A stretch of DNA of 42,451 bases from IMG/VR virus record IMGVR_UViG_3300005259_000079, positions 1 to 42,451 of that record; one strand, given 5' to 3'. The notes below the pieces were generated by a model. That model was not told the DNA's origin. It made no database searches and saw only the letters and a list, made by a program, of their open reading frames with translations. Every line of letters begins with the position of its first letter. Within the stretch, counting starts at the first letter, position 1. Made by a program: the position numbers and the translations under genes. Positions 14,662 through 32,677 of the stretch are shown here, one piece after another. This stretch comes from a virus. Taxonomy: Duplodnaviria > Caudoviricetes.

Positions 14662-14847
14662 ATGTCTTTAAACCCCGGTTACAAAGTCAAGGCGACGCGG
14701 CAGAAGATGGACTGTAAGCCAGGCCCGGCATTCATCTGCCCGGTTTGTCGCCGAACAATTCTGGAGGCCGAGGCCAAGCGCTTCCGAATTAAATGCAATC
14801 ACTGTGGCCATTGGGTTTATGCAGAGCGTCAATCCGACGCTGCATAA
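14662..14847 (+). CDS. com: Com-like C4 zinc-ribbon RNA-binding protein
   Basis: CPVCRRTILEA....RIKCNHC matches the Mu Com pattern CxxC.xLL.A...xI.CxxC; 61 aa; last early gene. Confidence 0.7.
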   Translation: MSLNPGYKVKATRQKMDCKPGPAFICPVCRRTILEAEAKRFRIKCNHCGHWVYAERQSDAA

Positions 14848-14854
14848 CCTCCTG

Positions 14855-14881
14855 AATGCGGCCTATTGGGCCGCATTTTTT
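14855..14881 (+). terminator. Intrinsic terminator ending the early operon
   Basis: AATGCGGCCT-ATT-GGGCCGCATT then T-run. Confidence 0.8.
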
Positions 14882-14886
14882 ATTCC

Positions 14887-14916
14887 TTGACGGCCCTTCC
14901 CGTTATGAACTAATCT
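14887..14916 (+). promoter_or_regulatory. sigma70 promoter of the moron
   Basis: TTGACG 14887-14892, 18 bp, TAATCT 14911-14916. Confidence 0.55.
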
Positions 14917-14923
14917 CTTTTTA

Positions 14924-15090
14924 CTATTAAACGCATCGGCTTATCCGCGCCCGTCAGAGCGGAACACTATTCGTGTATTTAAGTTTCCGCTCTGGCGGGC
15001 CGATAGGGCCTAATAAAACACTCCACAAGAGAAATAAGCCCAGTCGAATGCGTTCGATAGTTGAGACCCGCCGCCAGAGGCGGAAATTTT
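14924..15090 (+). ncRNA. C4/CI-like structured leader with alternative pairings
   Basis: 16-bp stem 14949-14964/14985-15000; competing pairing 14984-14998/15071-15086; short complements 14938-14944/15034-15040 and 14930-14936/15048-15054. Confidence 0.6.
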
Positions 15091-15106
15091 ATTCATAGGA
15101 GTACAT

Positions 15107-15412
15107 ATGCAACAGGAAACACATCACACCAAAGAAGAAGCCGCGAATTCTGTTAACTCCAGTACATCACCGCCTGCAGCAGATCCAATGGATAGCATCG
15201 TCGTACCTGCTATGGGAATTATGGACGTCCGTGACAATCTCCAGCAGTTAGCCGGCGTATCGTTTATGATGGCGGAGCTTACCTCGGACGCTCATCAGAA
15301 GGAATCATCACCATATGCCATTTTAAATTCGTATTTCATGCGGGCGCATCAATCCCTGATTAAGGCCTCACTAGACTTGGGCCACGCCCTTGAGAGGTCT
15401 CGGGCGCTTTGA
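15107..15412 (+). CDS. Hypothetical protein (moron behind the C4-like leader)
   Basis: SD AGGAG; flanked by its own promoter and terminator. Confidence 0.65.
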   Translation: MQQETHHTKEEAANSVNSSTSPPAADPMDSIVVPAMGIMDVRDNLQQLAGVSFMMAELTSDAHQKESSPYAILNSYFMRAHQSLIKASLDLGHALERSRAL

Positions 15413-15429
15413 TTGATGCAGAATTTTTG

Positions 15430-15464
15430 AGGCGGCAAACCCAACGGTTTTGCCGCCTTTTTTT
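15430..15464 (+). terminator. Intrinsic terminator of the moron
   Basis: AGGCGGCAAA/TTTGCCGCCT stem followed by T-run. Confidence 0.8.
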
Positions 15465-15599
15465 GGCCCTTTTCTTGCTTTGAAAAATGTAAAAACTTTT
15501 CTATATGACATAAAAAAAAATAATTTGCAAATTTTGCTTGATTTTCGAAATTTTTTGGTGTAGATGTCTTATCCAGTTAGTTGATCTTTGTATTTATCA

Positions 15600-15699
15600 G
15601 GCGCTTTAAGCGCCCATAAGAACACGTTAGGCTCATGAAGCCCGGTTGTTTGTAAGGAAGAGTTTGAAACCGTTCCCTACAGGCAGCCGGGTTTTTTTT
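15600..15699 (+). promoter_or_regulatory. Late-operon leader: two small hairpins and an overlapping intrinsic terminator (attenuator)
   Basis: GGCGCT-TTA-AGCGCC 15600-15614; GGCT-CATGA-AGCC 15630-15642; ~22-bp stem 15638-15659/15673-15694 with T8 at 15692-15699. Confidence 0.7.
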
Positions 15700-15741
15700 G
15701 TTTTGCAACCTTTAGGTTGTTTTTCACACAGGAGAACATCG

Positions 15742-16218
15742 ATGGCATCACGCAAAATCAGCGATTTAACACCATCCATGCAGGCCAAGTTCAAAAGGTT
15801 TGCAGCGCTCATGCTGCAAAAGGGCATTCCCTTCACCGTGACGTGCACCGCCCGCACGGTGGACGAGCAGGCGGCTTTGTATGCCCAGGGACGGAAAAAC
15901 CTGTTGTCCGTCAACGTGCTGCGAAATATGGCCGGACTGCCGGCGCTCACATCTGAAGCGCAAAACAAAATCGTCACGTGGACGCTGGCCTCCAAGCACA
16001 TCATCGACCTGAATGACGGAAGACCCGGCAATGATCAATCCCGCGCTTTCGATATCGCCATCACGCCCGGCGGAAAACCGGTCTGGGACGTCAAGGTCGA
16101 CGTCAACCAGGATCATATACCCGACTATATTCAGGCCGGAGAAATCGGTGAATCCGTAGGCCTGCGCTGGGGTGGGCGATTTGCAAAGCCGGACTATGCA
16201 CATTTTGAAGATTTATAA
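15742..16218 (+). CDS. Endolysin, M15 family (L-Ala-D-Glu-type) peptidase
   Basis: T.RT..EQ.ALYAQGR, SKH, AFDI, GLRWGG.F...D..HFE; true start ATG 15742 after AGGAG. Confidence 0.9.
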   Translation: MASRKISDLTPSMQAKFKRFAALMLQKGIPFTVTCTARTVDEQAALYAQGRKNLLSVNVLRNMAGLPALTSEAQNKIVTWTLASKHIIDLNDGRPGNDQSRAFDIAITPGGKPVWDVKVDVNQDHIPDYIQAGEIGESVGLRWGGRFAKPDYAHFEDL

Positions 16219-16300
16219 ACTCCTGTGAAAGGTTCCGGGTGGACTGACGGTAGCCATAGCCGCCACAAAGCCCGGAACCGCGACAGGTAAGGAGGTTGAT

Positions 16301-16852
16301 ATGGAAAGCAGTATTCTCAAAAAAATAGCCGACGGCATTGTCGATTATGCCCCCGAACTCGCTAAAATCCTGACCGCCACAGGCGTTGGCGCACCCGCAG
16401 GCGCGGCGCTCGAAGTCATCAGCTCTCTGGGGAAAGCATTCGGCCTGGGCGCTCAGGCGTCGCCCGATGCCGTTCATGCCGCCATCGCCTCCGACCCGCA
16501 GATTGCGCTGAAGTCCGTCATGGCCGAACAAGATTATGCGCTCAAGCAAAAAGATCAGGAACTCGAGGAGCTCAAGATTCGACTGTCGGATGTACAGTCT
16601 GCGCGTCAGCGGGAGGCCACCGTCAAAGACAACGTCAATAAGATTTTGGCTTATATTATCGTGGGGGCCTTCATCGCGCTGATCGCCGGCACACTGTTGG
16701 GATATGCCAAAGTCGAAAGCGCCCTGGCGGGCACTCTGGTCGGCTACATATCCGCAAAATGCGAACAGGTGCTGGCTTATTATTTCGGCAGTTCCAAAAG
16801 CAGCGACAAAAAGACAGACCTGCTGGCCAAAGCCGCCCCTATCAAGGATTAA
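16301..16852 (+). CDS. Holin-like membrane protein
   Basis: Follows endolysin; D.QSAR.RE then two TM segments ending YYFGSS.SS..K. Confidence 0.75.
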   Translation: MESSILKKIADGIVDYAPELAKILTATGVGAPAGAALEVISSLGKAFGLGAQASPDAVHAAIASDPQIALKSVMAEQDYALKQKDQELEELKIRLSDVQSARQREATVKDNVNKILAYIIVGAFIALIAGTLLGYAKVESALAGTLVGYISAKCEQVLAYYFGSSKSSDKKTDLLAKAAPIKD

Positions 16853-16855
16853 CGC

Positions 16856-17089
16856 ATGGCTGACGAACTCGACAGAGCCCAAGCGGCAAGCGAAGTTTAC
16901 GAAAATGCGGCAATGCGATCGCATAGTGCGCGACGATTTTCCCCCTCACCCCACCCCTCTCCCGCAAGGGGCGAGGGAGTGAAATGTGAAGACTGCGATA
17001 AGCCCATTCCCGCCGCTCGTTTAAAAGCCAATCCGGCCGCTACCCGCTGCGTGTCCTGTCAGACAAAATTCGAGTGTGGAGGCCATTGA
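16856..17089 (+). CDS. TraR/DksA C4-type zinc-finger protein
   Basis: MADELDRAQ...CEDC.KPIP.ARL.A.P...RCVSCQ; carries an in-frame palindrome insert at about 16940-16980. Confidence 0.9.
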   Translation: MADELDRAQAASEVYENAAMRSHSARRFSPSPHPSPARGEGVKCEDCDKPIPAARLKANPAATRCVSCQTKFECGGH

Positions 17090-17472
17090 TGGAAACCGTA
17101 AATGCAGGATGGGCGCTCTGGCAGATATTGCTTATGCTTCTTGCAATTATGGCTTCCTGGAGCCTGATCATTATCGCCGCGCTGCGCGTTATGTTTACGC
17201 GGTCTCTAAAGACAATCGAAGACAAAATGTCGGAATTCGCCAAAACCGCAACAGCCTGCTCTGATCTGGAGAGGGAATTTTTAGAATTTAAGGCGGAACT
17301 TCCGCTCAAATACATGATGCGCGAGGATTTCATCCGGTTTGAGGTTGGCATCAATTACAAAATGGACAAGCTTCGTGATCTTTTTTCAGAAGGAATTAAA
17401 AGCAACTACAATGAATTACGAGGCTTTTTCATAGACTTACTCAAACAGACTAAAACAGGGGAAAGCAAATGA
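17089..17472 (+). CDS. Membrane-anchored coiled-coil protein (Mu gp25-like position)
   Basis: N-terminal TM; LP.KY.MREDFIR motif. Confidence 0.75.
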   Translation: METVNAGWALWQILLMLLAIMASWSLIIIAALRVMFTRSLKTIEDKMSEFAKTATACSDLEREFLEFKAELPLKYMMREDFIRFEVGINYKMDKLRDLFSEGIKSNYNELRGFFIDLLKQTKTGESK

Positions 17473-17774
17473 ATCCAATGGACATGACAAAAGCGAAAAC
17501 GGAAGAACTCCGCTGGCTGATTCTGGAGGCGCTCAACGCCGCGCGTCCCGTGGGCACCACAGAAGCCATTATCCGGCGCGCCATTGATTCCGTCGTTCCC
17601 GGTGTGACCGAACACGAAATCCGCTGCGAGTTGGACTATCTCAAAGAACGTTCGCTGATAGATCTTGAAAGCAATAAACCTGTCTGGTTTGCCAAGATCA
17701 ACCGCTACGGCATCGACATCGTTGAATACACTGTCGATTGCCATCCGGGTATCGCACGCCCGGCTAAATGGTGA
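17469..17774 (+). CDS. Mu gp26-like protein
   Basis: RW.IL.AL.ARP.G...E.R.ELDYL.ER.L...G.D.VEYTV...PGIARP. Confidence 0.85.
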   Translation: MNPMDMTKAKTEELRWLILEALNAARPVGTTEAIIRRAIDSVVPGVTEHEIRCELDYLKERSLIDLESNKPVWFAKINRYGIDIVEYTVDCHPGIARPAKW

Positions 17775-17778
17775 GGAT

Positions 17779-18306
17779 ATGCCGCAACGCTCAAAAATCA
17801 TCCAGCTTCCGCAGGAAATCAAAGCCACCCTGGACCGCATGCTCATCGAGCGCGGTTTTTCCGGCTATGACCAGCTGGCGGAAGTTGTAAACGGTCAGCT
17901 GGCGCAAGCAGGCTATGAAATCACCGTGTCGCGCTCGGGCCTACACCGTTACGGGCAGGACTTTGAAGAGCGCCTCGCGGCGATTTCGATGGCCACAGAA
18001 CAAGCAAGGGCCGTAGCCGACGCCGCCCGTGACGATGAAAACAACATGAACGAAGCCCTCATCCGCCTGGTGCAGACCAAAGCCTTTGAAGCACTGGTGG
18101 ATGCAGAAAACCCGGAAAGCCTGTCCAAAATGGGCGTCATGATCGCCAAACTCAGCAAGGCCAGCGTCGATCAGAAAAAGTGGATGAATGAAATTCGGGC
18201 CAAAGCAAAGCAGGCTGCAGACGAAGTCGTTAAAACCGTCAAACAGGGCGGCATGAGTGAGGCCACCGCGCAGGAAATAAGAAAGAGAATTCTGGGGATC
18301 GTTTAA
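17779..18306 (+). CDS. Terminase small subunit, Mu gp27 / DUF3486
   Basis: MP.RSKI..LP.E....L...L....F.GY..L...VSRSGLHRYG; C-terminal IR..ILGI; SD GAGG. Confidence 0.88.
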   Translation: MPQRSKIIQLPQEIKATLDRMLIERGFSGYDQLAEVVNGQLAQAGYEITVSRSGLHRYGQDFEERLAAISMATEQARAVADAARDDENNMNEALIRLVQTKAFEALVDAENPESLSKMGVMIAKLSKASVDQKKWMNEIRAKAKQAADEVVKTVKQGGMSEATAQEIRKRILGIV

Positions 18307-18488
18307 TGAATCCATTTTTGATTTTTCCATACTTGATGATGCACTCAGAAATTAATGGCCGAATCTGGAATGGCCCTGAGTTGCGCAACGCACCCATTCA
18401 TAGAGGCGGCCGGAAAACATTCAAGATGAACCGTCGCAAAGAACTGAAGATCAGCGCCCGGCGAAAAGCAAGAGGGAGAAAATTATGA
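18306..18488 (+). CDS. Small basic hypothetical protein
   Basis: TAATG and ATGA coupling on both sides; Arg/Lys-rich C-terminus. Confidence 0.55.
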   Translation: MNPFLIFPYLMMHSEINGRIWNGPELRNAPIHRGGRKTFKMNRRKELKISARRKARGRKL

Positions 18489-18790
18489 TTAAGCCAACCG
18501 TAGGAAGAGTGGTTTTATACACACCAAATCAAGGAAGTCCGGATGAAACACTTGCAAAAGGAACCGGAAAGCTTGCAGCGATTATAACAAACGTTTGGTC
18601 AGATACGTGCGTTAATCTCGCTGTTTTTGATGCTAACGGCATAGCGACAAACCGCACATCTGTCCTTCTTGTCCAGGAAGGAAATCCCATCCCGACAGGC
18701 GGTTTTTATTGCGAGTGGATGGAACATCAAAAAGGACAGGCTGCTAAAACTGAAGAATTGGAAGAGAAATTAAAGCAACACCAATTATAA
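18485..18790 (+). CDS. Conserved phage hypothetical protein
   Basis: MIKPTVGRVV.Y...AAIIT.VW...VNL.VFD.NG motif common in phage genomes. Confidence 0.75.
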   Translation: MIKPTVGRVVLYTPNQGSPDETLAKGTGKLAAIITNVWSDTCVNLAVFDANGIATNRTSVLLVQEGNPIPTGGFYCEWMEHQKGQAAKTEELEEKLKQHQL

Positions 18791-18803
18791 AACGGGGAAA
18801 CTG

Positions 18804-20351
18804 ATGACCGACCAGACCGCATATAACGAACTTGACCAGACGCGTACTGCGCCGCCCGGCATCCTGCTGTCCTATCAGCAGCGATGGGTGGCCGACCAGG
18901 CCCCGGTCAAATTCATCGAAAAATCGCGCCGTGTCGGCATCTCCTGGGGCGAAGCGGCGGACGATACACTCTATGCTTCCGAAAAAGGCAAAGGCGAAAA
19001 ACGCAACGTCTGGTACATCGGCTACACAAAAGACATGGCGCTGGAATTCATTAACGATTGCGCAAACTGGGCACGCGCCTATAACATGGCAGCATCCGCC
19101 ATCGAAGAATATGAAGAACCGGATGAAGATGAAAACGGCATCGTCCAGGAAAAGAAAATCCTGGCCTATAAAATCACCTTCGAATCCGGCTGGCGCATTA
19201 CCGCCCTTTCCAGCCGTCCCACCAACCTGCGCGGTAAGCAGGGCCGCGTCGTGATTGATGAAGCCGCGTTCCATGACGATCTTCCGGGACTCCTCAAAGC
19301 CGCAATGGCGCTCTTAATGTGGGGCGGACAGGTTCGCGTCATCTCAACACATTTTGGAGATCAAAACGAATTCAATTCCGTCATCCAGGATATACGCGCC
19401 GGGAAAAAACCCTATAGCCTTCACCGCATAACCTTTGACGATGCCCTGGAAGACGGCCTGTATCGTCGGATTTGTGAAGTCCTGGACAAACCCTGGTCTG
19501 CTGAAGCAGAGACCGCCTGGCGGCAGAGCATCATCGATTCCTATGGAGACGACGCCGAGGAAGAACTCTTTTGCGTGCCCAGCCAGGGTACAGGCGTCTG
19601 GCTTACCCGAGCTATCATCGAAAAATGCTTGAATGCCGACATTCCGGTCATCCGCTATGAAAAGTCCGCATCCTTTGCCGAACTGCCCGATGTCGTCCGC
19701 TGGGCCGAAGTAAACGACTGGTGTGAAGAAACATTATTGCCGCACCTGGCTGAGCTGGATCCGCTCCAGAATTCTGTCGTCGGAGAAGACTTTGCCCGCA
19801 CCGGCGACCTCACCGTCATCAAGCCGTTGCTTGAACAGCAAAATGCCTCCTGGCGGGCGCTTTTTCACCTGGAGCTGCGCAATATCCCGTTTCAACAACA
19901 GGAGCAAATTGTTTACTACATCATCGATTCCCTGCCCCGCTTCCGCTACGGCGCTTTTGACGCGCGCGGCAATGGTCAGTACCTTGCCGAGCGCGCCATG
20001 CAGCGCTATGGGTCGGACCGCATTGCCCAGGTCATGATCACCGAACAATGGTACCGCGATGCCATGCCGGCTTATAAGGCAGCTTTTGAAGATCAAACCA
20101 TCACGGACGCAAAGGATGCCGACCTAATTGACGATCACCGCGCCGTCAAAATGATACGCGGCGTCGCCAAAGTTCCGGAAGGACGCCAAAAAGGCAAAGA
20201 CGACAAAAAACGCCACGGCGATTCCGCCATTGCCGGCGCAATGGCCTGGTATGCCACCCGCGCCGAATGGGGCGGCGAAATCGAATTTGAAAGCACCGGC
20301 ACGGCCAGAGTAACCGCCAGCGCGAGTATGTCAAATTTCATGAGCAATTAA
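18804..20351 (+). CDS. Terminase large subunit, Mu gp28-like
   Basis: LL.YQQRW, EKSRRVGISW, NLRGKQG.VVIDEAAFH, G.DFARTGD, RHGDSAIA. Confidence 0.95.
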   Translation: MTDQTAYNELDQTRTAPPGILLSYQQRWVADQAPVKFIEKSRRVGISWGEAADDTLYASEKGKGEKRNVWYIGYTKDMALEFINDCANWARAYNMAASAIEEYEEPDEDENGIVQEKKILAYKITFESGWRITALSSRPTNLRGKQGRVVIDEAAFHDDLPGLLKAAMALLMWGGQVRVISTHFGDQNEFNSVIQDIRAGKKPYSLHRITFDDALEDGLYRRICEVLDKPWSAEAETAWRQSIIDSYGDDAEEELFCVPSQGTGVWLTRAIIEKCLNADIPVIRYEKSASFAELPDVVRWAEVNDWCEETLLPHLAELDPLQNSVVGEDFARTGDLTVIKPLLEQQNASWRALFHLELRNIPFQQQEQIVYYIIDSLPRFRYGAFDARGNGQYLAERAMQRYGSDRIAQVMITEQWYRDAMPAYKAAFEDQTITDAKDADLIDDHRAVKMIRGVAKVPEGRQKGKDDKKRHGDSAIAGAMAWYATRAEWGGEIEFESTGTARVTASASMSNFMSN

Positions 20352-20367
20352 CAAACAGGCAAACATT

Positions 20368-23091
20368 ATGGCAGAAGAAACAAAAAATCCGTTAGCCCCT
20401 ACCGACGAAATCGCTACCCTCGAAAAGGATATCGAAATATTTTCAGGGTGGATCAAGCGCCTGGAAAATCCCGACCCCGTCCTGCGCAGCGAAGCGGCTG
20501 GAAAAGGCATTAAACTATACGACGAAGTGGACCGCGACGCCCATGCGGGCAGCGTGCTACAGCAGAGAATCATGGCCGTAGTTGGCAAGGAATGGCAAAT
20601 TCTTCCGGCCAAATCCGCGCGAAAGGCTGGCCGTCCCGCTTCCACCACACAGGAACAAACTATCGCCGAATTCGTTTCGAACGTTTTGTCGACGTGCAAT
20701 TTTGACCAGGCGCGGCAGGAACTGCTCAAGGCCATCCTCTATGGACATTATGAAGCGGAAATTATTTGGCAGGCAGAAAAAGACAGCAATGTCCAGAATT
20801 CAAGCCTGCGAATCAAGAAAATCATCGGCAAACATCCGCGCCGTTTCATCTTCACCGCCGAAAGAGAATTGCGCCTGCTGACCCGCAATAACATGATCGA
20901 AGGCGAATCCATTCCGGACAGGAAGTTTTTATCCTTCGGATATGGCGATTCCGACAACCCCTATGGTTGCGGCCTGGGAAGGCGTTTGTGGTGGCCGGTC
21001 TGGTTTAAAAAGCACGGCATCAAATTCTGGATGATCTTCCTGGAAAAATTCGGCATGCCCACCGTCGTCGGTAAATACCCCAGCGGCACCCTGCCCAAAA
21101 AGCAGGAAGAATTGATGGCCGCTATCAATGCCATCCAGACCGATACCGGCGTTAAAATACCCGAAACAATGGATATCGACCTGCTGGAAGCCACCAGGGC
21201 GGGCACTGTCACGCATGAGCAGCTCTGTGAGTATATGGACCGGCAGATATCCAAAGCCGTCTTGGGCCAAACCGCATCCACAGACGGCACACCCGGTAAA
21301 CTCGGCAATGACCAAAACCAGAGCGATGTTCGGCAGGAAATTGTCGAAGCCGACGCCGATCTGCTCGATAGCTACACAAACGAAACCCTGATCCGGTGGA
21401 TTGTCGACTTTAACTTTCCCAACGTAACCGCCTATCCTACAATTAAGACTTTCGCCAACGCCAAGCCGGATCTGACCGCCCGCGTAAGCGTAGACAAGAC
21501 TTTGGTGGTCGACATCGGCCTCCCGGTCGGCAAGTCATATTTTTACGAAACCTATGGCATCCCCGAACCTGCCCCCGGAGAAGACCTGGTCGAAGTGCGG
21601 CAATTATCCGCCTGGCCCAGCGATTCCTCCGGCGTCATTCCCGCAAAGGCGGGAATCCAGCAAGGTAAGGAATTCGCCGAAGGCGACTCCACTGACGTAG
21701 CCGACTATCTTGCCGCCGAACTGGCCGCCGCCTCTATGCCCAATACGGACGCCATGATGGTTCGGCTCAAAAAACTGACTGGCAGCGCCAAGTCCCTGGA
21801 AGATCTGCGCGACGGCATTATCGATATTTTTTCAGACATGAACCCGGCGGATCTGGGCAATACCATCGCCCGCGCCATGATGCTGGCCGAAATGTCCGGC
21901 CGTTATGAAGTTGCCGACGAAACCGGCATCTTGCAGGAAAAAAAAAGCCCGAAATTCGCTGAGGGCATAGCGCCATCGTTGATGGCCGTCTTTAAACTTC
22001 CGTTTAAAGAGCAGGAAAAGTTCTTTCAAAACAAGCTGAATATTCCGACCGAAAAATGGACGGACCTCTGGAAAGACCTGCACGCCAAAGGCTTCATGGT
22101 CGCAGGCGCATACAAAGCGGAATTGCTGACCGATTTCAGAGGTGTGGTGGACAAAGCCATTACCCAGGGCACCACGCTTGCCGACTTCCGGAAAGACTTT
22201 GACCGCATCGTCTCCCAGCACGGCTGGAGCTACAACGGCAGCCGCAACTGGCGCAGTGAAGTCATCTATTCCACCAACATCCGCACCGCTTATGCGGCAG
22301 GTCGCTGGGAGCAACTTCAGGATCCGGATATCATCAAAGCTTATCCGTACCTGGAATACCGCCACGGCGACAGCAAAAAGCCCCGCCCGCAGCACTTGGC
22401 ATGGAACGGCCTGGTCCTTCTCCGCGATGACGACTTCTGGAAAACGCATTATCCGCCCAACGGCTGGGGATGCAAATGCAAGGTCATCGCCGCCACAAAG
22501 CGCGACCAGAAAAAAGCGGCGGAAAACGGGAAAACCGAAGCGCCACCGGAGAAGATCGACAAGAAAACCGGCGAACCGGCCGGCATCGACAAAGGCTGGG
22601 GATATAATGTGGGTGCAGCGGCAGAGGAAAACGGTTACCGGGTGCTGGTGGATAAATTCGAAACGCTGCCTAACGATATAGCCCGCAAATGGATGGCGTC
22701 TTATGTGAACGAACCGGCGTTCGAGCGTTTCATATCCGGAGAAATCAAGGGCGAATTCCCTGTGGCGGTCATGGATGAACAAACGCAAGAAGCCATCAGT
22801 GCTCAGGCGCAGACGATATGGCTAAGTGATGAAACGCTGACTGAGCACTTAAAAAGACACCCGGAAATCGGCCTGGATCAATACAGGCTGCTGCCGGAAA
22901 TCATTAACGACGGCGAAGTCTACAAGCAAGGCGATGTAAAACTGATTTATTTGTGGCGCGACGGGAAACTCTATCGCGCAGGCGTCAAAAGAACTCGGGA
23001 CAAAAGCGGAAACTACATTCTGACGCTGTTTGAAACAACAGACAAAACGGCGCTGAAAAACGTAAGGGGAAAATATGAAAGGATTCGTTGA
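20368..23091 (+). CDS. Fused portal (Mu gp29/DUF935) + MuF (gp30) head protein + C-terminal PBECR-type putative RNase
   Basis: Portal motifs NPYG.GL, FLEKFGMP..VGKY, ISKAVLGQT to about aa 520; MuF motifs LPF.EQ..FF..K, YSTN.RTAY.AGR, RPQH.AW.G, YPPNGWGC.C; C-terminal H..RHPEI....Y..LP.II..G...LTLF. Confidence 0.88.
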   Translation: MAEETKNPLAPTDEIATLEKDIEIFSGWIKRLENPDPVLRSEAAGKGIKLYDEVDRDAHAGSVLQQRIMAVVGKEWQILPAKSARKAGRPASTTQEQTIAEFVSNVLSTCNFDQARQELLKAILYGHYEAEIIWQAEKDSNVQNSSLRIKKIIGKHPRRFIFTAERELRLLTRNNMIEGESIPDRKFLSFGYGDSDNPYGCGLGRRLWWPVWFKKHGIKFWMIFLEKFGMPTVVGKYPSGTLPKKQEELMAAINAIQTDTGVKIPETMDIDLLEATRAGTVTHEQLCEYMDRQISKAVLGQTASTDGTPGKLGNDQNQSDVRQEIVEADADLLDSYTNETLIRWIVDFNFPNVTAYPTIKTFANAKPDLTARVSVDKTLVVDIGLPVGKSYFYETYGIPEPAPGEDLVEVRQLSAWPSDSSGVIPAKAGIQQGKEFAEGDSTDVADYLAAELAAASMPNTDAMMVRLKKLTGSAKSLEDLRDGIIDIFSDMNPADLGNTIARAMMLAEMSGRYEVADETGILQEKKSPKFAEGIAPSLMAVFKLPFKEQEKFFQNKLNIPTEKWTDLWKDLHAKGFMVAGAYKAELLTDFRGVVDKAITQGTTLADFRKDFDRIVSQHGWSYNGSRNWRSEVIYSTNIRTAYAAGRWEQLQDPDIIKAYPYLEYRHGDSKKPRPQHLAWNGLVLLRDDDFWKTHYPPNGWGCKCKVIAATKRDQKKAAENGKTEAPPEKIDKKTGEPAGIDKGWGYNVGAAAEENGYRVLVDKFETLPNDIARKWMASYVNEPAFERFISGEIKGEFPVAVMDEQTQEAISAQAQTIWLSDETLTEHLKRHPEIGLDQYRLLPEIINDGEVYKQGDVKLIYLWRDGKLYRAGVKRTRDKSGNYILTLFETTDKTALKNVRGKYERIR

Positions 23092-23190
23092 ACGTGTGCG
23101 GGATCGGCAACTATCCCCGCTTCGCACTCATCATCCGGAATCCCGGAAGGTGTCGGCAGCCTGTGGCCGAAACGCGTCAACAAATCCTTT
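23078..23190 (-). ncRNA. Candidate ~113-nt structured small RNA behind the MuF-nuclease gene
   Basis: Closing stem 23078-23097/23172-23190 enclosing three hairpins; starts about 7 nt downstream of a minus-strand -10 box. Confidence 0.6.
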
Positions 23191-23197
23191 GAACGTA

Positions 23198-23225
23198 ATT
23201 TTAACACAGGCGGCATCAGAGTCAA
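23198..23225 (-). promoter_or_regulatory. Leftward sigma70 promoter for the small RNA
   Basis: TTGACT (23225-23220), 16 bp, TAAAAT (23203-23198) with extended -10 TG. Confidence 0.7.
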
Positions 23226-23234
23226 GGGGCAATA

Positions 23235-23741
23235 TTGGAACTGAAATTTGAAATCAGAGACTCGGGCATCGATGGCGTCCTGGAGCGGATCGCCCGCAAG
23301 GGCGGCGACACATCGGTGGCTCTCAAAATCATCGGCGAACGCATCGTTCGCCAGACTGATGACCGCTGGACCCGCAATGTGGATCCGGACGGCCGCCCCT
23401 GGGTTTTGCCTAAAGCTTCCAGCTGGCGCAAGAAAAAAAGCCCTCTCACCCTGGTTGAAAGCGGTCACTTGCGCAATTCCATCCGCTGGCAGGTCGACGG
23501 CAATGTGCTGAGAGTCGGCACAAACCTGATTTATGCGCGTATTCAGCATGAAGGCGGCAAGACCAAAGCGCACGACATTCGGCCCATCGAGAAAAAAGCG
23601 CTGGCCTGGCCGGGCGGCAGGCACCCTGTGCGAGTTGTTCATCATCCCGGATCAAATATTCCGTCGCGTCGGTTTCTGGGCATTGGCCGGGCGGATTCGG
23701 CGGATATTGTCGAAGTGCTGACCGACTGGCTGGAATGCTAA
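23235..23741 (+). CDS. Virion morphogenesis protein, Mu gpG (gp31)-like
   Basis: DPDG.PW..., L..SG.L.NSI, VGTNL.YA.IQH.GG, IP.RRFLGI; TTG start. Confidence 0.88.
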   Translation: MELKFEIRDSGIDGVLERIARKGGDTSVALKIIGERIVRQTDDRWTRNVDPDGRPWVLPKASSWRKKKSPLTLVESGHLRNSIRWQVDGNVLRVGTNLIYARIQHEGGKTKAHDIRPIEKKALAWPGGRHPVRVVHHPGSNIPSRRFLGIGRADSADIVEVLTDWLEC

Positions 23742-23748
23742 ATTCGAT

Positions 23749-23800
23749 GTAGCGCGGGTCTTCAGACCCGCCTGAAAGCGCGGCTAAAGACCCGCACTAG
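23749..23800. repeat. GTAG-family REP-like element, same family as host 2769-2840
   Basis: GTAGCGCGGGTCTTCAGACCCGCC versus host GTAGTACGGGTCT...TAGACCCGCC. Confidence 0.65.
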
Positions 23801-23812
23801 GAGGTAACATAA

Positions 23813-25012
23813 ATGAATTTCAAAGGTTTTGATGACTGGATTCCTATTTTCCGTGGCGGCAAGCAGATTGACTCTGCAGGCCATGATCACGATGGCGATG
23901 CCCTGATTGAAAAGGCGCTGGCCAAGTTCAACACGGCAACACACGAACCCCCCGCCTGTGTCGGCCATCCGGAAGACAATAAGCCGGCCTATGGGTGGGT
24001 TGAAGGGCTCAAAAAAGGCAAAGATAAGCTGGGAACAATCCTGCTGGCCAAATTCAAGCAGGTTGAACCCACTTTCGGCCAAATGGTCAAGGAAGGCCGG
24101 TTTAAAAAGCGCAGTTCCGCTTTTTATCCCGATGGAACCCTCCGGCATGTCGCTTTTCTGGGGGCCATGCCTCCGGCGGTTAAGGGTCTGCCTGACGTTG
24201 CTTTTGCCGAAGGCGAAGCGGCCAGTTTCGAGTTTTCCGAAGAATATGCATTGAATTCAATAGCAGATTTATTCCGTAACATGCGGGAATGGCTGATAGA
24301 AAAATTCGGCCAGGATGTCGCGAATAAAATCATCCCGGATTGGCAAATTGAAGGTTTGAGGTCGGCTGCAGATGATGAGGCCGACGAATCCCAAAACACA
24401 TCATCAACAGCAATTTATTCCGATAAGGAGGATAACCCTATGACGTTTAAACAGAAATTAGAGGCTTTTTTCAGCGAATTACTGAAGAAAATGCCGGACG
24501 ACGGCCCCGGATCCACCACAACCACCACCCAGGGCAAGCAGTTTTCCGAAGCCGACCTGGAGAGGGTCAAAAGAGAGGCGGCAGACGCCGAACGCGAAAA
24601 AGTGACCGCAGAATTCAACGAGAAGGCGAAAAAAACTCGCGAGGACGGCCTCAGGGGAGAGATTTCCGCATTTTGCGACTCATTAGTCGCTCAGGGACGC
24701 ATTTTGCCCGCCACGGTCAAATTTGGGCTTCCGGAAATCCTTTTTGCCCTGGGGCAGCGGGAAGAAACAATCGAATTTGGAGAAACAAAAGAAAAAGCAA
24801 CCGTTTACGACCGTTTTAAGGCGCTCCTGTCCGCAGCCAAGCCCCTGGTAGCCTTCAGCGAGATCGCTACCAGGGACAAAGATGCCGGCGATACCGGGCA
24901 TGATCAGCGCGAGCAGGCTATCCAGAAATACATGGAGACAAACAAGGCCGACTACAAAACAGCCGTCCTGGCTGTCTCTAAAGATCAGCCGGCATTATTT
25001 TCCGAACGATAA
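23813..25012 (+). CDS. Prohead protease with nested scaffold (internal start 24440), Mu gpI/Z-like organisation
   Basis: WI.IFR.G, VGHP....PAYGWV..L, FKKRS, LRHVAFLGA.PPAVKGL; AAGGAGG SD before in-frame ATG 24440. Confidence 0.88.
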   Translation: MNFKGFDDWIPIFRGGKQIDSAGHDHDGDALIEKALAKFNTATHEPPACVGHPEDNKPAYGWVEGLKKGKDKLGTILLAKFKQVEPTFGQMVKEGRFKKRSSAFYPDGTLRHVAFLGAMPPAVKGLPDVAFAEGEAASFEFSEEYALNSIADLFRNMREWLIEKFGQDVANKIIPDWQIEGLRSAADDEADESQNTSSTAIYSDKEDNPMTFKQKLEAFFSELLKKMPDDGPGSTTTTTQGKQFSEADLERVKREAADAEREKVTAEFNEKAKKTREDGLRGEISAFCDSLVAQGRILPATVKFGLPEILFALGQREETIEFGETKEKATVYDRFKALLSAAKPLVAFSEIATRDKDAGDTGHDQREQAIQKYMETNKADYKTAVLAVSKDQPALFSER

Positions 25013-25045
25013 ACATAATAAAATCAGTAAGGAGGATTATAAATC

Positions 25046-25429
25046 ATGTGGGGACAAACAAGCGGTATCGAAAAATCGGCAAAATGCACAGCGGCGGTTA
25101 CGGCGTTTACCTTTGCCAAATTTGGGTCGGATGACAGCACCCTGTCTATCGCCACTACTTCGGCCAGTGACAGCCTTGTGGGAATTTTTCAGCATGCTAC
25201 ATCCAACGCCGGCGACGAAGTCCGCACCATGCTCACAGGCATCAGCCGCATCAAACTGGGCGGCACCGTCACTCGCGGTCAGAAATTGACTTGTGACGGA
25301 TCCGGGCAGGGAGTAGCTGCGGCACCGTCCGCCGGATCCAATGTGCATGTTGGAGCAATAGCCCTGGCGTCCGGCGTATCCGGCGACATCATCCCCTGCC
25401 TGCTCATGCCGTCGGTCATGCAGGGATAA
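25046..25429 (+). CDS. Capsid decoration/cement protein (DUF2190-like)
   Basis: Small Gly/Ala-rich beta protein, GG.VTRG..LT.D..G..V, G.AL.SG..GDII; directly before the MCP. Confidence 0.75.
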   Translation: MWGQTSGIEKSAKCTAAVTAFTFAKFGSDDSTLSIATTSASDSLVGIFQHATSNAGDEVRTMLTGISRIKLGGTVTRGQKLTCDGSGQGVAAAPSAGSNVHVGAIALASGVSGDIIPCLLMPSVMQG

Positions 25430-25458
25430 AATTTTAAATCAACGCCATAGGCTTCAAA

Positions 25459-25497
25459 ACAGACCTGACAGTCTTTTGACCTACAGACTAACAGCCT
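25459..25497. repeat. Degenerate ACAG(A/T/C)C short tandem repeats
   Basis: ACAGACC-TGACAGTCT ... CTACAGACT-AACAGCCT between the decoration and MCP genes. Confidence 0.4.
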
Positions 25498-25515
25498 TTT
25501 AAGGAGGATCAAACA

Positions 25516-26466
25516 ATGCCCGAACCCAGGAATTTACACGTAGACCAGGTATTATCGAACCTGTCCGTCAAATACAAAAACGAAGACATGATCTGGCCGA
25601 ATATTATGCCGATTGTGAAAGTCGATAAACGCTCTAACAAGTATGACGTTTATACAAAGGCCGATTCTTATAAACTGGTCGATGATTCAATCGGCCCCAA
25701 ATCCTTGCCCAACGAATCCGACTGGGGCGTCGGCCAGGATAATTACTCCGTGGCGGATCATGCCCAGGGCGATTGGCTTCCGCAGGAGGATGTCGACAAT
25801 GCCGACAATCCCCTGCAGCCGGAAGTCGATACCAACGATTTCTTGAATAACCTGCTGGATATCGCCCAGGAAAACCGCGTTGCCAATGTCGTGTTTCCGT
25901 CAACGCCCTCTACAACGTATCCGACCGGCAATTATACGACCCTTTCCGGAACATCGCAATGGGGCCAGAGTGCCGATGACCCGGTCGGCAACCTTCTGAC
26001 CGCGATCGAAGGATGCTTCTATCGCGCCAATACTATCGTCATGGGCGTGGATGTCTGGGTAATCTTCCGCAAATTGCAGGAAATCCTCGACGCCGTTAAA
26101 GGGTCCACCCGCTACCAGGGATCTCCGGGAGGTCTCGCTACGGTTGAAGAGTGCAAGGGCCTGTTTGAAGTCGAAAACTGGCTCATCGGCAGAGGCCGTT
26201 ATATCAGCTCAAAAGAAGGCCAAACACCGACGTATGCGAGAATATGGGGCAAGCACGTATCCGCCATGTATGTCAAACCCGGCAGTCTGGGAATCAAAAC
26301 AATCACCTTTGGGAAAACCTTTGCCGAAATGCTGCGCCAGACCCAGACGGATTTCGATCCGAAGCGCGGTGTCAAGGGCGCTAAATATTTCAAGGTCGCC
26401 TGGAATAGCTGCGAGAAGGTTGTCGCATCCGATCTCGGCTACATGATCCAGAACGCCGTGCCGTGA
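25516..26466 (+). CDS. Major capsid protein
   Basis: 316 aa after protease and decoration genes; H.D..LSN.SV.Y.N N-terminus, E.RVA, GY.I.NAV C-terminus; strong SD. Confidence 0.88.
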   Translation: MPEPRNLHVDQVLSNLSVKYKNEDMIWPNIMPIVKVDKRSNKYDVYTKADSYKLVDDSIGPKSLPNESDWGVGQDNYSVADHAQGDWLPQEDVDNADNPLQPEVDTNDFLNNLLDIAQENRVANVVFPSTPSTTYPTGNYTTLSGTSQWGQSADDPVGNLLTAIEGCFYRANTIVMGVDVWVIFRKLQEILDAVKGSTRYQGSPGGLATVEECKGLFEVENWLIGRGRYISSKEGQTPTYARIWGKHVSAMYVKPGSLGIKTITFGKTFAEMLRQTQTDFDPKRGVKGAKYFKVAWNSCEKVVASDLGYMIQNAVP

Positions 26467-26557
26467 TCTTAATCTCCTCCTGGTCGTCTCCCGCCCTTGT
26501 AGGCGGGAGTGCCTGGCGGAAACGCATTTAATGAATCAAACAGAAAGAGAGGTTTCC

Positions 26558-26809
26558 ATGCCCAAATATAAAGTCAAAGACGGTGCGTTTATCCAGCACG
26601 ATGGAAAAGCATACGGGCCGGGCGATATCCTCACCGCCACCGAAGAACAGGCCGAATTGCTGTCCGTTGAGGAACTGCCCGCGGATGAAGAAAAATATGC
26701 GGATATGACCAACAAGGAACTGATCGCAGCATTAACCGCAAAGGGAATCGAAATCCCGGCAAAGGTTACAAAGGCCGCGCTGATCGACCTGCTGGCCAAC
26801 GCCAAATAA
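26558..26809 (+). CDS. Small head-associated protein with C-terminal HeH/LEM-like motif
   Basis: Y.V....I.HDGK.Y.PGD; MT.KEL...L..KGIE.P....KA.LI.LL; SD GAGGT. Confidence 0.75.
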   Translation: MPKYKVKDGAFIQHDGKAYGPGDILTATEEQAELLSVEELPADEEKYADMTNKELIAALTAKGIEIPAKVTKAALIDLLANAK

Positions 26810-26815
26810 AGCGAA

Positions 26816-26863
26816 ATCCCGCCGATTGTGGCGGGATCATGCCGGACTCGGCACCCGGCATCT
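26816..26863. repeat. Tandem palindromes (ATCCCGCC/GGCGGGAT and ATGCCGG/CCGGCAT)
   Basis: Direct inspection; related CTCCCGCC/GGCGGGAG hairpin at 26488-26509. Confidence 0.55.
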
Positions 26864-26889
26864 GATGAGCAGCCGAAGAGGTATTAACA

Positions 26890-27222
26890 ATGGCAGAGAT
26901 ATTAGCACCAGCAACATATGCGTCCCCAAAAACGATTATCATCGAACCGCAAGAGCTGGCGGGATTGTATCGTTTCGGCGCGATCGTGGCTAATAATGAG
27001 CTGATAAATAATCCTCTGCATACGGATGCGTATGTATCTGATGATGGTGCCGAGTGGCGCTATCTGTGCGGATCGGCAGACTCTGGAGAGGTCGTAGAAG
27101 GGAAAACGAATGATCACGGGTTCATCATCGATGCTAATCTGATCAATGGTAAATATATAAAAATTTCGCTCAGTTTTAGTGCGTTATTAAACGTCGGGTA
27201 TCTCATGGAGCCGGTCAAATGA
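26890..27222 (+). CDS. Hypothetical protein (accessory virion cassette)
   Basis: SD GAGGT; YVSDDG..W motif suggests a beta-sandwich. Confidence 0.65.
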   Translation: MAEILAPATYASPKTIIIEPQELAGLYRFGAIVANNELINNPLHTDAYVSDDGAEWRYLCGSADSGEVVEGKTNDHGFIIDANLINGKYIKISLSFSALLNVGYLMEPVK

Positions 27223-27893
27223 CGATTTCTATTACTCAGCAAAACTGGCTCGCGGCCACTACTACAGGCAGCCAATCACTCGCTTTTACATCTAATGTGA
27301 CAGCAGGGAATGTCTTGATTGCGGTCGGTTATACCTATGGATCGGGAATCGATTTAAATGCAATATCCGATTCCCGTGGCAATGCATGGACACGCAATGT
27401 TTACGGTGGCAATAATGGTTCATTCTCTGGCATTTGGTCATGCGTGGCTAAAGATTCCGGCATATGCACCGTCACCTGCGGTGGCACTGGTAATTATCAT
27501 AGTATAGGATTACTTGAGGTTTCCGGATTAGATACTTCTTCGCTTGTTGATAATACAAATTCCGGAAGCACAACAGGAACATCAATCACTGCATCAATCA
27601 CGACCACTACGCCAAACACATTGTTGGTAGGGGCAATGCAGGAGCCCGGTGGCGGTCTGACCATTACATCCAATAATAATGAAATCGGGAAACAGCAAAA
27701 CGGTAACTACATGGTCAGCGCTGCTGAGTATAGCATCGTAAGCGCTGCGGGTGCGAATTCTTTAACCTGGGGAATCAATACATCAACACAGTTATTTTGG
27801 TGCATTGCTGCGTATGAGGCAGCGTCATCCAACGCTCAGTCATTGCCCCCCTTCACACCCTGGCCGCAATTAGGCCCGATATTAGCCCAGTAA
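27219..27893 (+). CDS. Ser/Thr/Gly-rich beta-sandwich protein, probable virion appendage
   Basis: AF.SNVTAGN.LI...ISDS.GN.W...EVSG, two similar halves; Pro-rich C-terminal tail. Confidence 0.7.
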   Translation: MTISITQQNWLAATTTGSQSLAFTSNVTAGNVLIAVGYTYGSGIDLNAISDSRGNAWTRNVYGGNNGSFSGIWSCVAKDSGICTVTCGGTGNYHSIGLLEVSGLDTSSLVDNTNSGSTTGTSITASITTTTPNTLLVGAMQEPGGGLTITSNNNEIGKQQNGNYMVSAAEYSIVSAAGANSLTWGINTSTQLFWCIAAYEAASSNAQSLPPFTPWPQLGPILAQ

Positions 27894-27903
27894 AGGAGAT
27901 TCT

Positions 27904-28086
27904 ATGGCAGAAATATTAACACCGCAGCAGATCAACGAAGAACAAAGAAAAACAGCATGTATGCAGGAAATACAGACATCGCTCAACAAGTATCAATGCA
28001 TGCTGAATCCTGTGTTCCATATCAGTTCGCAAGGCATCAGGGGAGATATCGAAATTCTCCCGAAACCAATAATCGCAACCATATAA
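27904..28086 (+). CDS. Small hypothetical protein
   Basis: SD AAGGAG; 60 aa. Confidence 0.6.
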   Translation: MAEILTPQQINEEQRKTACMQEIQTSLNKYQCMLNPVFHISSQGIRGDIEILPKPIIATI

Positions 28087-28112
28087 TTCAATCCGGAAGG
28101 AGGATATTTTAG

Positions 28113-28598
28113 ATGAGAGAATACACAATCAAGGGACAAAACATCACAGTCGCCAATCAGGCTGTCAGTTTGGTGGCGGTCATGCCCGTTGCCGGAACCG
28201 TCATTGAAATTCTGCGTTGCTGGGTTTCCCAGGCAGCAAACGCGACATCCGCACAACAGCGAATTTTACTGGGGTTGAAGGCATCCGTCTTCCAGACCGT
28301 CACCGCTGCGACGCCGCAGAAAACCAAAACAGGCGATCCCGCGTCCGGTATTACGGGTGGCACCACGATTGCCGCTGGTGTGGCCGGTATCAATGCATCT
28401 GCTGAAGGCGCGGGAACGTTGACGGATATTATCAACGATTCGTTCAACGTCTTGAACGGATGGCTCTGGGTGCCGACACCACGTGAAACGATCATCATCC
28501 GCGCGGCAGATTCGGTGGCATTCACGATGCAGTTCCCGGCCGCGCCTGCAACATTGACTGGATGGAATTTTGGCGTCACGTACGCCGAGATTGGCTAA
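28113..28598 (+). CDS. Hypothetical protein, probable structural beta-sandwich
   Basis: SD AGGAGG; FN.LNG.LW.PTP.E motif; ends V.Y.EIG. Confidence 0.7.
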   Translation: MREYTIKGQNITVANQAVSLVAVMPVAGTVIEILRCWVSQAANATSAQQRILLGLKASVFQTVTAATPQKTKTGDPASGITGGTTIAAGVAGINASAEGAGTLTDIINDSFNVLNGWLWVPTPRETIIIRAADSVAFTMQFPAAPATLTGWNFGVTYAEIG

Positions 28599-28621
28599 TA
28601 CTATTTAAGGAATTCTGAACC

Positions 28622-29683
28622 GTGGGAATTTACTATCAACCTCCTCCGGCACCGACAATCCCGCCGGTGCCGCTGCAAAATTTACCGCCGGCGCTCCTGG
28701 CTGTCCGGGGTGATGCTCCGCCCGTTATGTGTGGCGCAAATGATCCGGATGTCATGTGGAATATCCTCCGTATGCATGACGCGCCAGATCCGCAACCGAG
28801 GCAGACACCGCCCAGCGCCATTCCCGCGCTCTATCCTAAATCAGTTGATAATCCTCCGGTAATGTGCGGTGCGAACGATCCGGATCTGTATCTATCCATT
28901 AGATCATGGGATGATCCCGCGCCCTGGCCAATACAGGGCAAGCGATCAATTGTATCTCCGCTCTATCCGATCATCATCAGCAACCCGCCGCTGAACAATC
29001 GCGGACAATTAATAAACCTTATCCGGGCATGGGATCAGGCGGAATTTCGTATTCCATCGCCTTCTCAATTTCCTCAGGCTACAATCATCAATTTGCCGCC
29101 TTTTACGCAATTATCCCGGACATCGGCATTTCAGACACTCGTTCAATCATGGATACCGCCTGATCCCATGCCGCCCAGGTCATCTATCAACCTGGCTCCG
29201 GCAATATCGGTCATACGAGGAGACAATCCTCCGGTAATGTGCGGTGCGAACGATCCGGATCTATATCTATCCATTAGGTCATGGGATGATCCCGCGCCCT
29301 GGCCAATGCAGGGCAAGCGATCAATTGTATCTCCGCTCTATCCGATGATTGTCAGCAATCCGCCGCTGAACAATCGCGGACAATTAATGAACCTTATCCG
29401 GGCATGGGATGCGACAGATTTACGGATTCCGTCCCTGGTTAAATTGCCGCAGCTTACGATCATTAATCTGCCGCCTTTTACGCAATTATCCCGGACATCC
29501 GTATATCAGACGCTTATTCAATCGTGGATGCCGCCTGATCCTATGCCGCCGCGCTCATTGCTCAACGTCGTCATTCCCTTATGGACGCCGGTATCCCTGT
29601 ACAACAAGGTTCGTCTGTCGTTCGTACCGCGACAGGGCGGCGTGCTCTTTACAGCCAAAAATGGAACGGTGAAAATAGGATGA
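28622..29683 (+). CDS. Proline-rich repeat protein
   Basis: About seven 37-45 aa units xPP...I..WxxPxP; GTG start; ATGA overlap with next gene. Confidence 0.7.
   Translation: MGIYYQPPPAPTIPPVPLQNLPPALLAVRGDAPPVMCGANDPDVMWNILRMHDAPDPQPRQTPPSAIPALYPKSVDNPPVMCGANDPDLYLSIRSWDDPAPWPIQGKRSIVSPLYPIIISNPPLNNRGQLINLIRAWDQAEFRIPSPSQFPQATIINLPPFTQLSRTSAFQTLVQSWIPPDPMPPRSSINLAPAISVIRGDNPPVMCGANDPDLYLSIRSWDDPAPWPMQGKRSIVSPLYPMIVSNPPLNNRGQLMNLIRAWDATDLRIPSLVKLPQLTIINLPPFTQLSRTSVYQTLIQSWMPPDPMPPRSLLNVVIPLWTPVSLYNKVRLSFVPRQGGVLFTAKNGTVKIG
28850..29555 (+). repeat. Internal direct repeat, 375-bp (125-codon) period
   Basis: Copy 1 starts 28850 and copy 2 starts 29225 (AATCCTCCGGTAATGTGCGGTGCGAACGATCCGGATCT...). 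Confidence 0.9.
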
Positions 29684-30000
29684 AAATAATCAACGAAAAG
29701 ACATCGCTGGTCCTGGAATTGAAATTTAGCGATGAACTGGATCGACCGGTCATCCCGGCCAGTGCTCAATACCGGCTCGATGATGTCTCTACCGGTCAGC
29801 AGATAGCGGGTTGGACAAATATCGCACCATCTGCGGCCACATATGACCTGGTTATTTCGGATGAACAAAACGCCATCATCGATCCTGACCAGGAAGTCGA
29901 AAAAAAGCGGGTCACGGTCAGTTTTACATTCGGTTCGGACAACAAGCGGGCAACGGATGAATATACATACGCCGTGCGGAATTTAACGAATATAACCTGA
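29680..30000 (+). CDS. Hypothetical beta-sandwich protein, 106 aa
   Basis: MKIINEKTSLVLELKF.DE...PV.P.SA.Y; coupled start at 29680. Confidence 0.7.
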   Translation: MKIINEKTSLVLELKFSDELDRPVIPASAQYRLDDVSTGQQIAGWTNIAPSAATYDLVISDEQNAIIDPDQEVEKKRVTVSFTFGSDNKRATDEYTYAVRNLTNIT

Positions 30001-30010
30001 GAGGAAGTCT

Positions 30011-30442: not shown

Positions 30443-30496
30443 CCTCCCCCTTCGCGCCACCTTCAGGTGGTTCTAAAGGGGGATTGAGGGGGATTT
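30443..30496. repeat. CCCCC...AAAGGGGG-NNN-GAGGGGGATTT element, copy 1, with nested GCCACCTTCAGGTGG
   Basis: Shared with 38243-38278 and 38655-38689; nested ACCTTCAGGT equals host 2788-2797. Confidence 0.7.
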
Positions 30497-30497
30497 G

Positions 30498-31013: not shown

Positions 31014-31015
31014 AT

Positions 31016-31052: not shown

Positions 31053-31068
31053 AAACAAGGAGGAAATC

Positions 31069-32675: not shown

Positions 32676-32677
32676 CT

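Follow-up and report, generated by a model that had tools for sequence, protein, structure and literature searches.

How can a Mu-like prophage start its lysis and virion genes without a recognisable Mor or C activator? The question is raised by IMG/VR record IMGVR_UViG_3300005259_000079, whose whole 42,451-nt stretch was analysed here (hereafter the window). It is a single provirus record rated 100% complete, and a Pfam and PHROGs scan of its 66 open reading frames (ORFs) identifies a transposable Mu-like prophage. The last gene of its early operon encodes a Com-like zinc ribbon, and the leader of the first late gene holds two small hairpins and a long predicted terminator. The first-pass annotation of this DNA had proposed that binding of Com prevents closure of the terminator and thereby switches on the late operon. 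Comparative linkage and alternation with Mor support this proposal, and we consider it likely that the Com-like ribbon opens a terminator gate ahead of the genes for lysis and virions, taking the part of Mor/C. The elements concerned are listed below.

14662..14847, + strand: 61-aa zinc-ribbon ORF resembling Com (CxxC-x15-CxxC), with which the early operon ends
15538..15566, + strand: predicted late promoter of sigma-70 type, TTGATT-17-TAGATG; the promoters of relatives at this position are near-consensus
15583..15593, + strand: boxA-like element GATCTTTGTAT, 45 nt past the start of the -35 hexamer, between the promoter and hairpin 1
15598..15615, + strand: Com-type hairpin 1, with a 5-bp stem, U-A closing pair, 2-nt loop and bulged A
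15628..15643, + strand: Com-type hairpin 2, whose 3' arm is the terminator base
15638..15699, + strand: long predicted intrinsic terminator, stem 15641-15691, U8 at 15692-15699
15742..16218, + strand: endolysin, first late gene, ATG at 15742; PF13539 E 3e-7, phrog_465
15742..41520, + strand: co-oriented lysis, packaging, head and contractile-tail genes, a putative regulated operon

Both hairpins (GGCGCT-TTA-AGCGCC, 15600-15614, and GGCT-CATGA-AGCC, 15630-15642), the promoter candidate, the U8 tract and the endolysin start lie exactly where the annotation had placed them. The terminator, described there as ~22 bp over 15638-15699, folds with a z-score of -6.5 (200 shuffles); 21 of its pairs stand above the U tract and 4 extend into it. 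It is the most stable of the 12 U-tailed hairpins listed on the + strand from 5000 to the window end. The accompanying remark that the late operon contains no other U-tailed terminator is roughly right: each of the remaining + strand candidates is short, no better than chance or located within an ORF, and the exception is an intergenic GC-rich hairpin with a poor U tail at 38623-38686, between gp46 and baseplate J. The small hairpins alone (15590-15650) are within chance (z = -1.5), and their weight derives from conservation, not from the folding score. Relatives carry hairpin 1 as GGCGG/CCGCC with a C-G closing pair, and the U tract is retained among them. Rfam gave no family for the late leader in the window region or the related loci. 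The pan RNA motif was considered and gained no support, with no match at E 5 in the window region or at E 1 in 12 related loci; its likeness is limited to two bulged As within tandem hairpins (PMC2864571).

How hairpin 2 and the terminator share their letters can be followed among relatives. Over 14 distinct second sites, 96% of the cells are paired and four of six pairs show two-sided changes, a score reached in 0 of 500 shuffles; slid controls drop to 24-67% paired. The 5' arm of the site, its 3' arm and the terminator foot vary jointly (GGCT/AGCC/GGGC, GGGC/GCCC/GGGGC, GCTC/GGGC/GGCCC), and over 33 leaders selected by protein the foot tracks the site, with the inner terminator stem free in length and sequence. 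Enforcing the site raises the fold of the window from -48.1 to -40.8 kcal/mol, a cost of 7.3 (median cost 8.5 over 54 leaders), and the minimum free energy terminator uses the site arm in 53 of these 54. When hairpin 2 is enforced in the window, the terminator loses two G-C pairs and those reaching into the U tract but keeps its upper stem; with the site enforced, 2-4 unpaired bases lie ahead of the U tract in 46/54 leaders. The annotated competition between the two folds thus holds at the terminator base and fails for the upper stem, which still forms. In stepwise folding, hairpin 2 is seen from 15645 through 15680 and is displaced at 15691. As competition is limited to the lowest 2-4 terminator pairs, Com likely acts by keeping the hairpin from being completed. 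Completion of the hairpin is reported to be the final step before RNA release, and low-efficiency termination persists without it (10.1101/2022.08.30.505822), so the block by Com need not be absolute.

From this anatomy and the conserved fold and overlap, together with the linkage to com and the lack of a detectable Mor described below, we infer promoter firing, timing, binding and read-through in the following order. The promoter at 15538-15566 would be active in the lysogen and yield a terminated RNA of ~125 nt. Upon induction, the early operon would produce Com. Hairpin 2 would form ~50 nt ahead of the synthesis of the terminator 3' arm, giving Com time to bind. With AGCC at 15639-15642 bound by Com, the upper stem would form and stop 2 nt before the U tract is reached, and the polymerase would read on. 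No sequencing run was listed for 14000-17000, which is neutral as to expression.

The proposal depends first on the identity of the 61-aa protein, which the annotation had called Com-like. This description is borne out by a match to the translational regulator family phrog_6417 (E 6.8e-5), which also matches the Com upstream of a Mom-like gene (L137), and by a profile comparison: the profile of the window's clade aligns with a profile of 20 Coms from methylase/mom loci (hhalign 94.6%, E 6.7e-8, 32 columns), a short, Cys-rich match of moderate strength. C26, C29, C45 and C48 are invariant among 20 aligned proteins, and 10 of the 20 aligned protein partners of the leader match PF10122 at E <=0.5 (best 8.2e-8). 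With the classical-Com profile, the Com-like ORF is the sole ORF reaching at least 12 bits in six frames of the window. Its predicted structure has four strands with a predicted local distance difference test score of 86. A protein homologue search using the window Com returned the self-match only; a tblastn search of cultured phages with a short Com reached 17 Ralstonia, Burkholderia and Curvibacter records. On these profile matches we call the ORF a divergent member of the Com family.

Are the leader hairpins Com targets? The target of Haemophilus Com found by SELEX, in which ligands are evolved systematically through exponential enrichment, is NGAGNNCC(N)2-3GAGNNCCNN, with the loop-side GA protected (PMC6483171). 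In our reading, an outer pair and a bulged A are followed in this motif by four pairs, a closing pair round 2-3 nt and a second bulged A; this two-bulge architecture occurs in both leader hairpins with base-pair swaps. A descriptor of the Com fold finds eight + strand and two - strand sites in the window, and terminator overlap only at 15630, with the neighbouring site at 15600. Among 28 classical com-methylase/mom loci, the descriptor recognises the hairpin within the 3' end of com in 8, and Mu-like variants were seen by eye in others. A near-identical hairpin occurs in two settings, as GAGGGCCACGAGCCCC at the com-methylase loci L108 and L137 and as GAGGGCCAACGAGCCCC overlapping the terminator in L084. 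Because nearly the same sequence is found in both, the leader hairpins are probably Com targets, and this is our strongest reason for that assignment.

The linkage was followed in both directions. A search for the hairpin/terminator overlap downstream of com-like genes started from the best 80 of 273 viral loci obtained with the Com alignment, which represent 54 distinct proteins. Site and terminator lie within 2.6 kb downstream in 14 of these 54 non-redundant Com loci (two being seeds) and in 8/12 loci of the window's own Com subfamily (several being seeds or from the same contigs). The first gene past the terminator is an endolysin or amidase in 6/14 and 5/8 loci, respectively, and never a methylase (neighbour annotation covered 75 of 102 candidate ORFs). 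The overlap is present in 0/26 loci with an annotated methylase or Mom-like neighbour, and the background is one match in 1.1 Mb of shuffled loci. In the opposite direction, the exact RNA pattern yielded 33 viral and 23 genome loci. The classical-Com profile matches 14/33 viral loci, and a broader profile that includes pattern-locus sequences matches 27/33; among the six misses, four have <700 nt upstream, one has its Com 4.9 kb off on the same contig (L029/L096), and L025 is unexplained. Com is matched in 10/23 genome loci; L071 has site and terminator without Com, and the other 12 are chance-like, all without Com. Weak unrelated matches (L171-L174), chance-like descriptor matches (L032, L065, L073) and duplicates were left out before counting. 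In many phages, the hairpin stands as a tandem pair at a terminator base ahead of lysis or structural genes. Some pattern loci are followed by genes for heads, portals and proteases from phages that are not related to Mu, and prophages sharing the leader and the Com gene are present in a Deltaproteobacteria bacterium genome (L055, L057).

Several leaders depart from the common layout. L001/L031, L036, L042, L055 and L057 have three hairpins of the Com type, with a longer stem enclosing the middle one. The late leaders of L184 and L202 combine a divergent ribbon, CxxC...CxxxC, with a tandem alternative site GAGCYCCTGAGAGGGCC, and ribbon and site appear to have changed together. In Paceibacteria/Saccharibacteria loci (L060, L066, L067, L069), a Com domain opens ORFs of 150-320 aa, followed by site and terminator and by large genes; L066 has repeated sites, and no phage genes were noticed among the printed ORFs of these four loci. 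In L076 (Nitrospina, ~3900-4300), a promoter whose sequence we take to be Fur-box-like precedes site and terminator, and the com ORF lies past the terminator, making an autoregulated host operon possible.

Zinc ribbons can bind DNA, and Mu Com is a translational activator. The protein might accordingly be a DNA-binding zinc finger of the P2 Ogr type with the repeats as its operators, or Com might control endolysin translation as it does that of mom. We regard both forms as highly improbable. The repeats are located downstream of the promoter, their asymmetric bulged As are kept, and G-U pairing is allowed (a U-G closing pair in 7/33). The ribosome-binding site of the endolysin (AGGAG, 15730-15734) lies outside the terminator, 30 nt beyond a U tract that relatives have retained.

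The role assigned to the Com-like ribbon also requires that the usual activator be missing. The annotation had found no Mor/C homologue, and the profile searches agree: PF08765 gave no candidate in any of the six frames of the window, a profile built from five Mor-type ORFs of related records reached a best E of 1.3, and Pfam and PHROGs show no Mor/C among the 66 ORFs. For contrast, 50 Mu-like records were selected by the gp27 terminase subunit. Mor is matched in 29 of them (24 above the cut-off; many Mor records are near-copies), and in these 29 site and terminator occur upstream of gp27 in none and a Com match in none of the fetched loci. Among the 21 Mor-less records, the module is present in 13, 11 by descriptor and two (L004, L202) by eye; L184 and L202 were counted with a divergent ribbon recognised by eye. 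In the gp27 tree, Mor and Com types are interleaved in one clade, and well-supported branches force at least 5-6 changes. In a second batch, Mor was matched in 0/30 leader-bearing and 13/20 classical com records; this is weak evidence, with one of the 30 at least 90% complete, many not Mu-like and three called by eye. Taken together, the Mor contrast supports replacement and does not prove it.

Records selected by gp27 also show other arrangements at this boundary. L219 (~3050-2900 nt upstream of gp27) and L199 (~1950-1850 nt upstream) carry promoter-terminator late leaders with other motifs and are both Mor-less and Com-less; the L219 leader has two GGTAAACC hairpins. These leaders possibly use a different antiterminator. 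A Mor-looking ORF that PF08765 missed lies 3453-3013 nt upstream of gp27 in L240, and in L231 a small excisionase-like helix-turn-helix (HTH) gene, labelled by eye, stands at the early/late boundary, ~2140-1950 nt upstream of gp27.

The last two cases bear on the alternative that another early DNA-binding protein activates initiation, with the leader terminator being leaky or acting only to damp basal expression. Candidates in the window include a weak-HTH ORF at 14062-14661 and the ORF at 10639-11052; weak HTH matches (E 0.02-0.03), the poor promoter, the HTH gene of L231 and the failure of Pfam to recognise a divergent Mor in L240 speak for such an activator. In L005, however, the homologue of 13422-14090 is followed directly by com, with no HTH ORF between, and the late promoters of relatives are near-consensus. 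Since this explanation also leaves the conserved bulged hairpins and the covarying overlap unaccounted for, we judge it improbable.

Several observations weigh against antitermination by Com as replacement for Mor/C. On the protein side, the Com-like ORF scores 13.7 bits with PF10122 (E 0.044), under the gathering threshold of 22.9; a Foldseek search of its predicted fold against PDB gave nothing at E <=0.001, and small CxxC ribbons resemble many families. On the RNA side, neither window hairpin has the SELEX motif's outer G-C pair, and hairpin 1 has AA in place of the GA reported as contacted (PMC6483171). L004 retains Com, hairpin 1 and the terminator and has lost most of hairpin 2. The covariation sites were chosen by a pairing descriptor, which biases them towards structure, and since the descriptor chose the pairings and the scan seeds are partly RNA-pattern loci, the linkage counts are not fully independent. 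Eight of the 21 Mor-less gp27-selected records lack the module, and in the underpowered comparison corrected for kinship the independent Mor/Com pairs number 5-6, giving a non-significant sign test p of 0.5, none being contrary. Because PF08765 missed the ORF of L240, a very divergent activator could be overlooked in the window as well. Finally, the late promoter is weak and is unlisted by a consensus promoter scan.

The promoter can be compared with those of host ribosomal RNA (rRNA) operons. Its -10 hexamer TAGATG recurs ahead of a 16S gene (L256), in what looks like a promoter. Of 41 genomes from the class of G101, which hosts related prophages, 18 yielded a 16S gene; the core of the boxA-like element occurs in 18/18 of their 16S leaders, 46-55 nt past -35 in 12/18, and the -10 hexamers TAGATT, TAGAAG and TAGATG are common there. 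Since the rRNA leaders of that class share such hexamers and the boxA spacing, the weak window promoter gains credibility. The core is found in 9/9 rows of the window's clade (45-48 nt past -35), in 8/13 Com-type records (43-48 nt) and 0/29 Mor-type records, and in 17/53 Com leaders overall, once within the promoter spacer. These similarities suggest that the late leader may mimic a host rRNA leader. Compared with the gamma-proteobacterial consensus GYTCTTTAANA (PMC5725501), the boxA-like element differs at 4/10 specified positions; only the core matches, and the 3' half departs. Through this element, which the annotation had not mentioned, host Nus factors may join the complex.

An extension of the antitermination proposal follows from this element: Com, boxA and host Nus factors might form a processive complex like that of lambda N over the 26-kb operon, with the overlap as its first checkpoint. 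The order of elements resembles that of lambda, where the constitutive late promoter pR' is followed by the terminator tR'. A boxA beside a protein-bound hairpin also forms the nut layout of lambda (PMC2724277), and in the window's clade the core stands just ahead of hairpin 1 and matches that of all 18 rRNA leaders. No homologue of Q or N was found with Pfam and PHROGs, and the window site differs from the lambda arrangement in overlapping the terminator. Moreover, the limited occurrence of the core (17/53) implies that Com leaders function without boxA, the late operon has no strong internal terminator requiring bypass, and the boxA region is AT-rich. We therefore hold this extension to be tentative and rather doubtful, and the same applies to its broadest form, in which Com zinc ribbons would be widespread, unrecognised late antiterminators of phages, interchangeable with Mor/C in transposable phages and acting in this clade in an N-like, Nus-processive manner over 26 kb on an rRNA-style promoter-boxA leader.

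The remaining features of the window are as follows.

4353-4892: repressor
6167-8446: transposase, followed by a MuB-like ATPase, GemA and Gam
14854..14882, + strand: predicted intrinsic terminator closing the early operon, z -4.5
14994..15080, + strand: sRNA-Xcc1-like structured RNA, RF02221 42.3 bits, E 1.3e-5, below the gathering threshold of 53
15107..15412, + strand: cassette ORF, 101 aa, with no Pfam, PHROG or NCBIfam match and Atlas matches <0.9 only
15431..15465, + strand: predicted terminator insulating the late promoter, from folding and a terminator scan
41690..42451, + strand: D12 adenine methylase, PF02086 E 1.1e-31, at the mom position of the right end

The com-like gene does end the early operon, as annotated; the leader is not adjacent to it, a point that had been missed. 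A ~600-bp cassette with its own terminators parts the two (~750 bp from gene to sites), and since a terminator and this cassette follow the com-like gene, the late leader needs its own promoter. A hairpin like that at 15431-15465 precedes the late promoter in L001, L003, L004, L005, L010 and L020. In L169, a similar sRNA-Xcc1-like RNA lies downstream of com, ahead of a Rha-like antirepressor.

Could the switch function in relatives and have decayed in the window copy, as the cassette, the weak promoter and the imperfect hairpins might suggest? The TAGATG hexamer and the outer pair absent from both hairpins would fit such decay. Against it, hairpin 1 differs from its relatives by compensatory changes, the inner terminator stem differs and is yet fully paired, relatives bear inserts of their own, 0.3-2 kb long, at this position, and the record is rated 100% complete. 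Decay is very unlikely.

The annotation was also right that the com-like gene is away from a modification gene, the methylase being 27 kb off, and it had overlooked that the prophage carries this D12 methylase at the mom position. Overlap with a modification gene, the mark of a com/mom operon, is thus lacking. The Com-fold descriptor found no Com-type hairpin in the methylase leader; that leader (41520-41690) contains several hairpins (z -2.5 for 41510-41650), with neither an Rfam match nor a Com site. Elsewhere in the late region, a single 907-aa ORF at 20368-23091 is a portal fused with a Mu F head-morphogenesis protein, and an ORF with repeats at 28622-29683 has near-identical stretches at 28900 and 29275 and no family match.

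How does the proposed gate relate to known systems? With Mu Com (PF10122) it shares a four-Cys ribbon of ~60 aa and a two-bulged-A hairpin fitting the SELEX motif. Mu Com is encoded by a late gene at the right end and activates mom translation, whereas the window gene is early and has an N-terminal NPGY extension. Unlike that of Mu, it is followed ~750 bp downstream by the tandem sites, and the overlap is with a terminator that stands ahead of the whole late operon. Mor/C (PF08765) has the same place at the early/late boundary and the same inferred role, but it acts on initiation (10.1101/2025.05.02.651988) and is not detectable in the window. The ANTAR regulators EutV, NasR and AmiR likewise act through a pair of small hairpins, of which the second overlaps the terminator on its 5' side (PMC3369931). 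In contrast to them, no ANTAR domain is found in the 66 ORFs, the A1/G4 hexanucleotide loops are absent, the hairpin spacing varies widely, and control here would concern the timing of phage expression rather than signalling. The gate most likely operates like ANTAR dual-hairpin antitermination with a reader of the Com family.

Com genes have been described next to genes for methylases, bacteriocins and tailocin lysis, with their wider role left open (PMC3299994, PMC6240691). Pseudomonas com-like genes precede llpA, tailocin lysis and levansucrase genes, and are thus also linked to non-methylase or lytic genes; the available part of that report leaves their role open and names no terminator mechanism (PMC6240691). 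We found no published description of Com-dependent antitermination in a literature search covering mostly non-subscription papers and, for RNA-motif surveys, PMC2864571. The accessible part of a 2025 review of RNA-binding antiterminators mentions neither phage nor zinc, and a preprint on BaGTA antitermination mentions none of Com, zinc, hairpin or boxA. Judging by abstracts, the Com hairpin also serves as an RNA-engineering tool.

If antitermination by Com is true, a family so far known for translational activation in Mu alone would have a job at the level of transcription, which is relevant to the unsettled role of those com-like genes that are not near mom (PMC6240691). It would explain the timing of lysis and assembly in transposable phages without Mor/C and in several unrelated tailed phages. 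The switch unit would be tiny, consisting of a 40-60 aa protein, a 16-nt hairpin and a terminator, and a block confined to the final 2-4 pairs of so long a terminator would serve as a clean test of hairpin-completion models.

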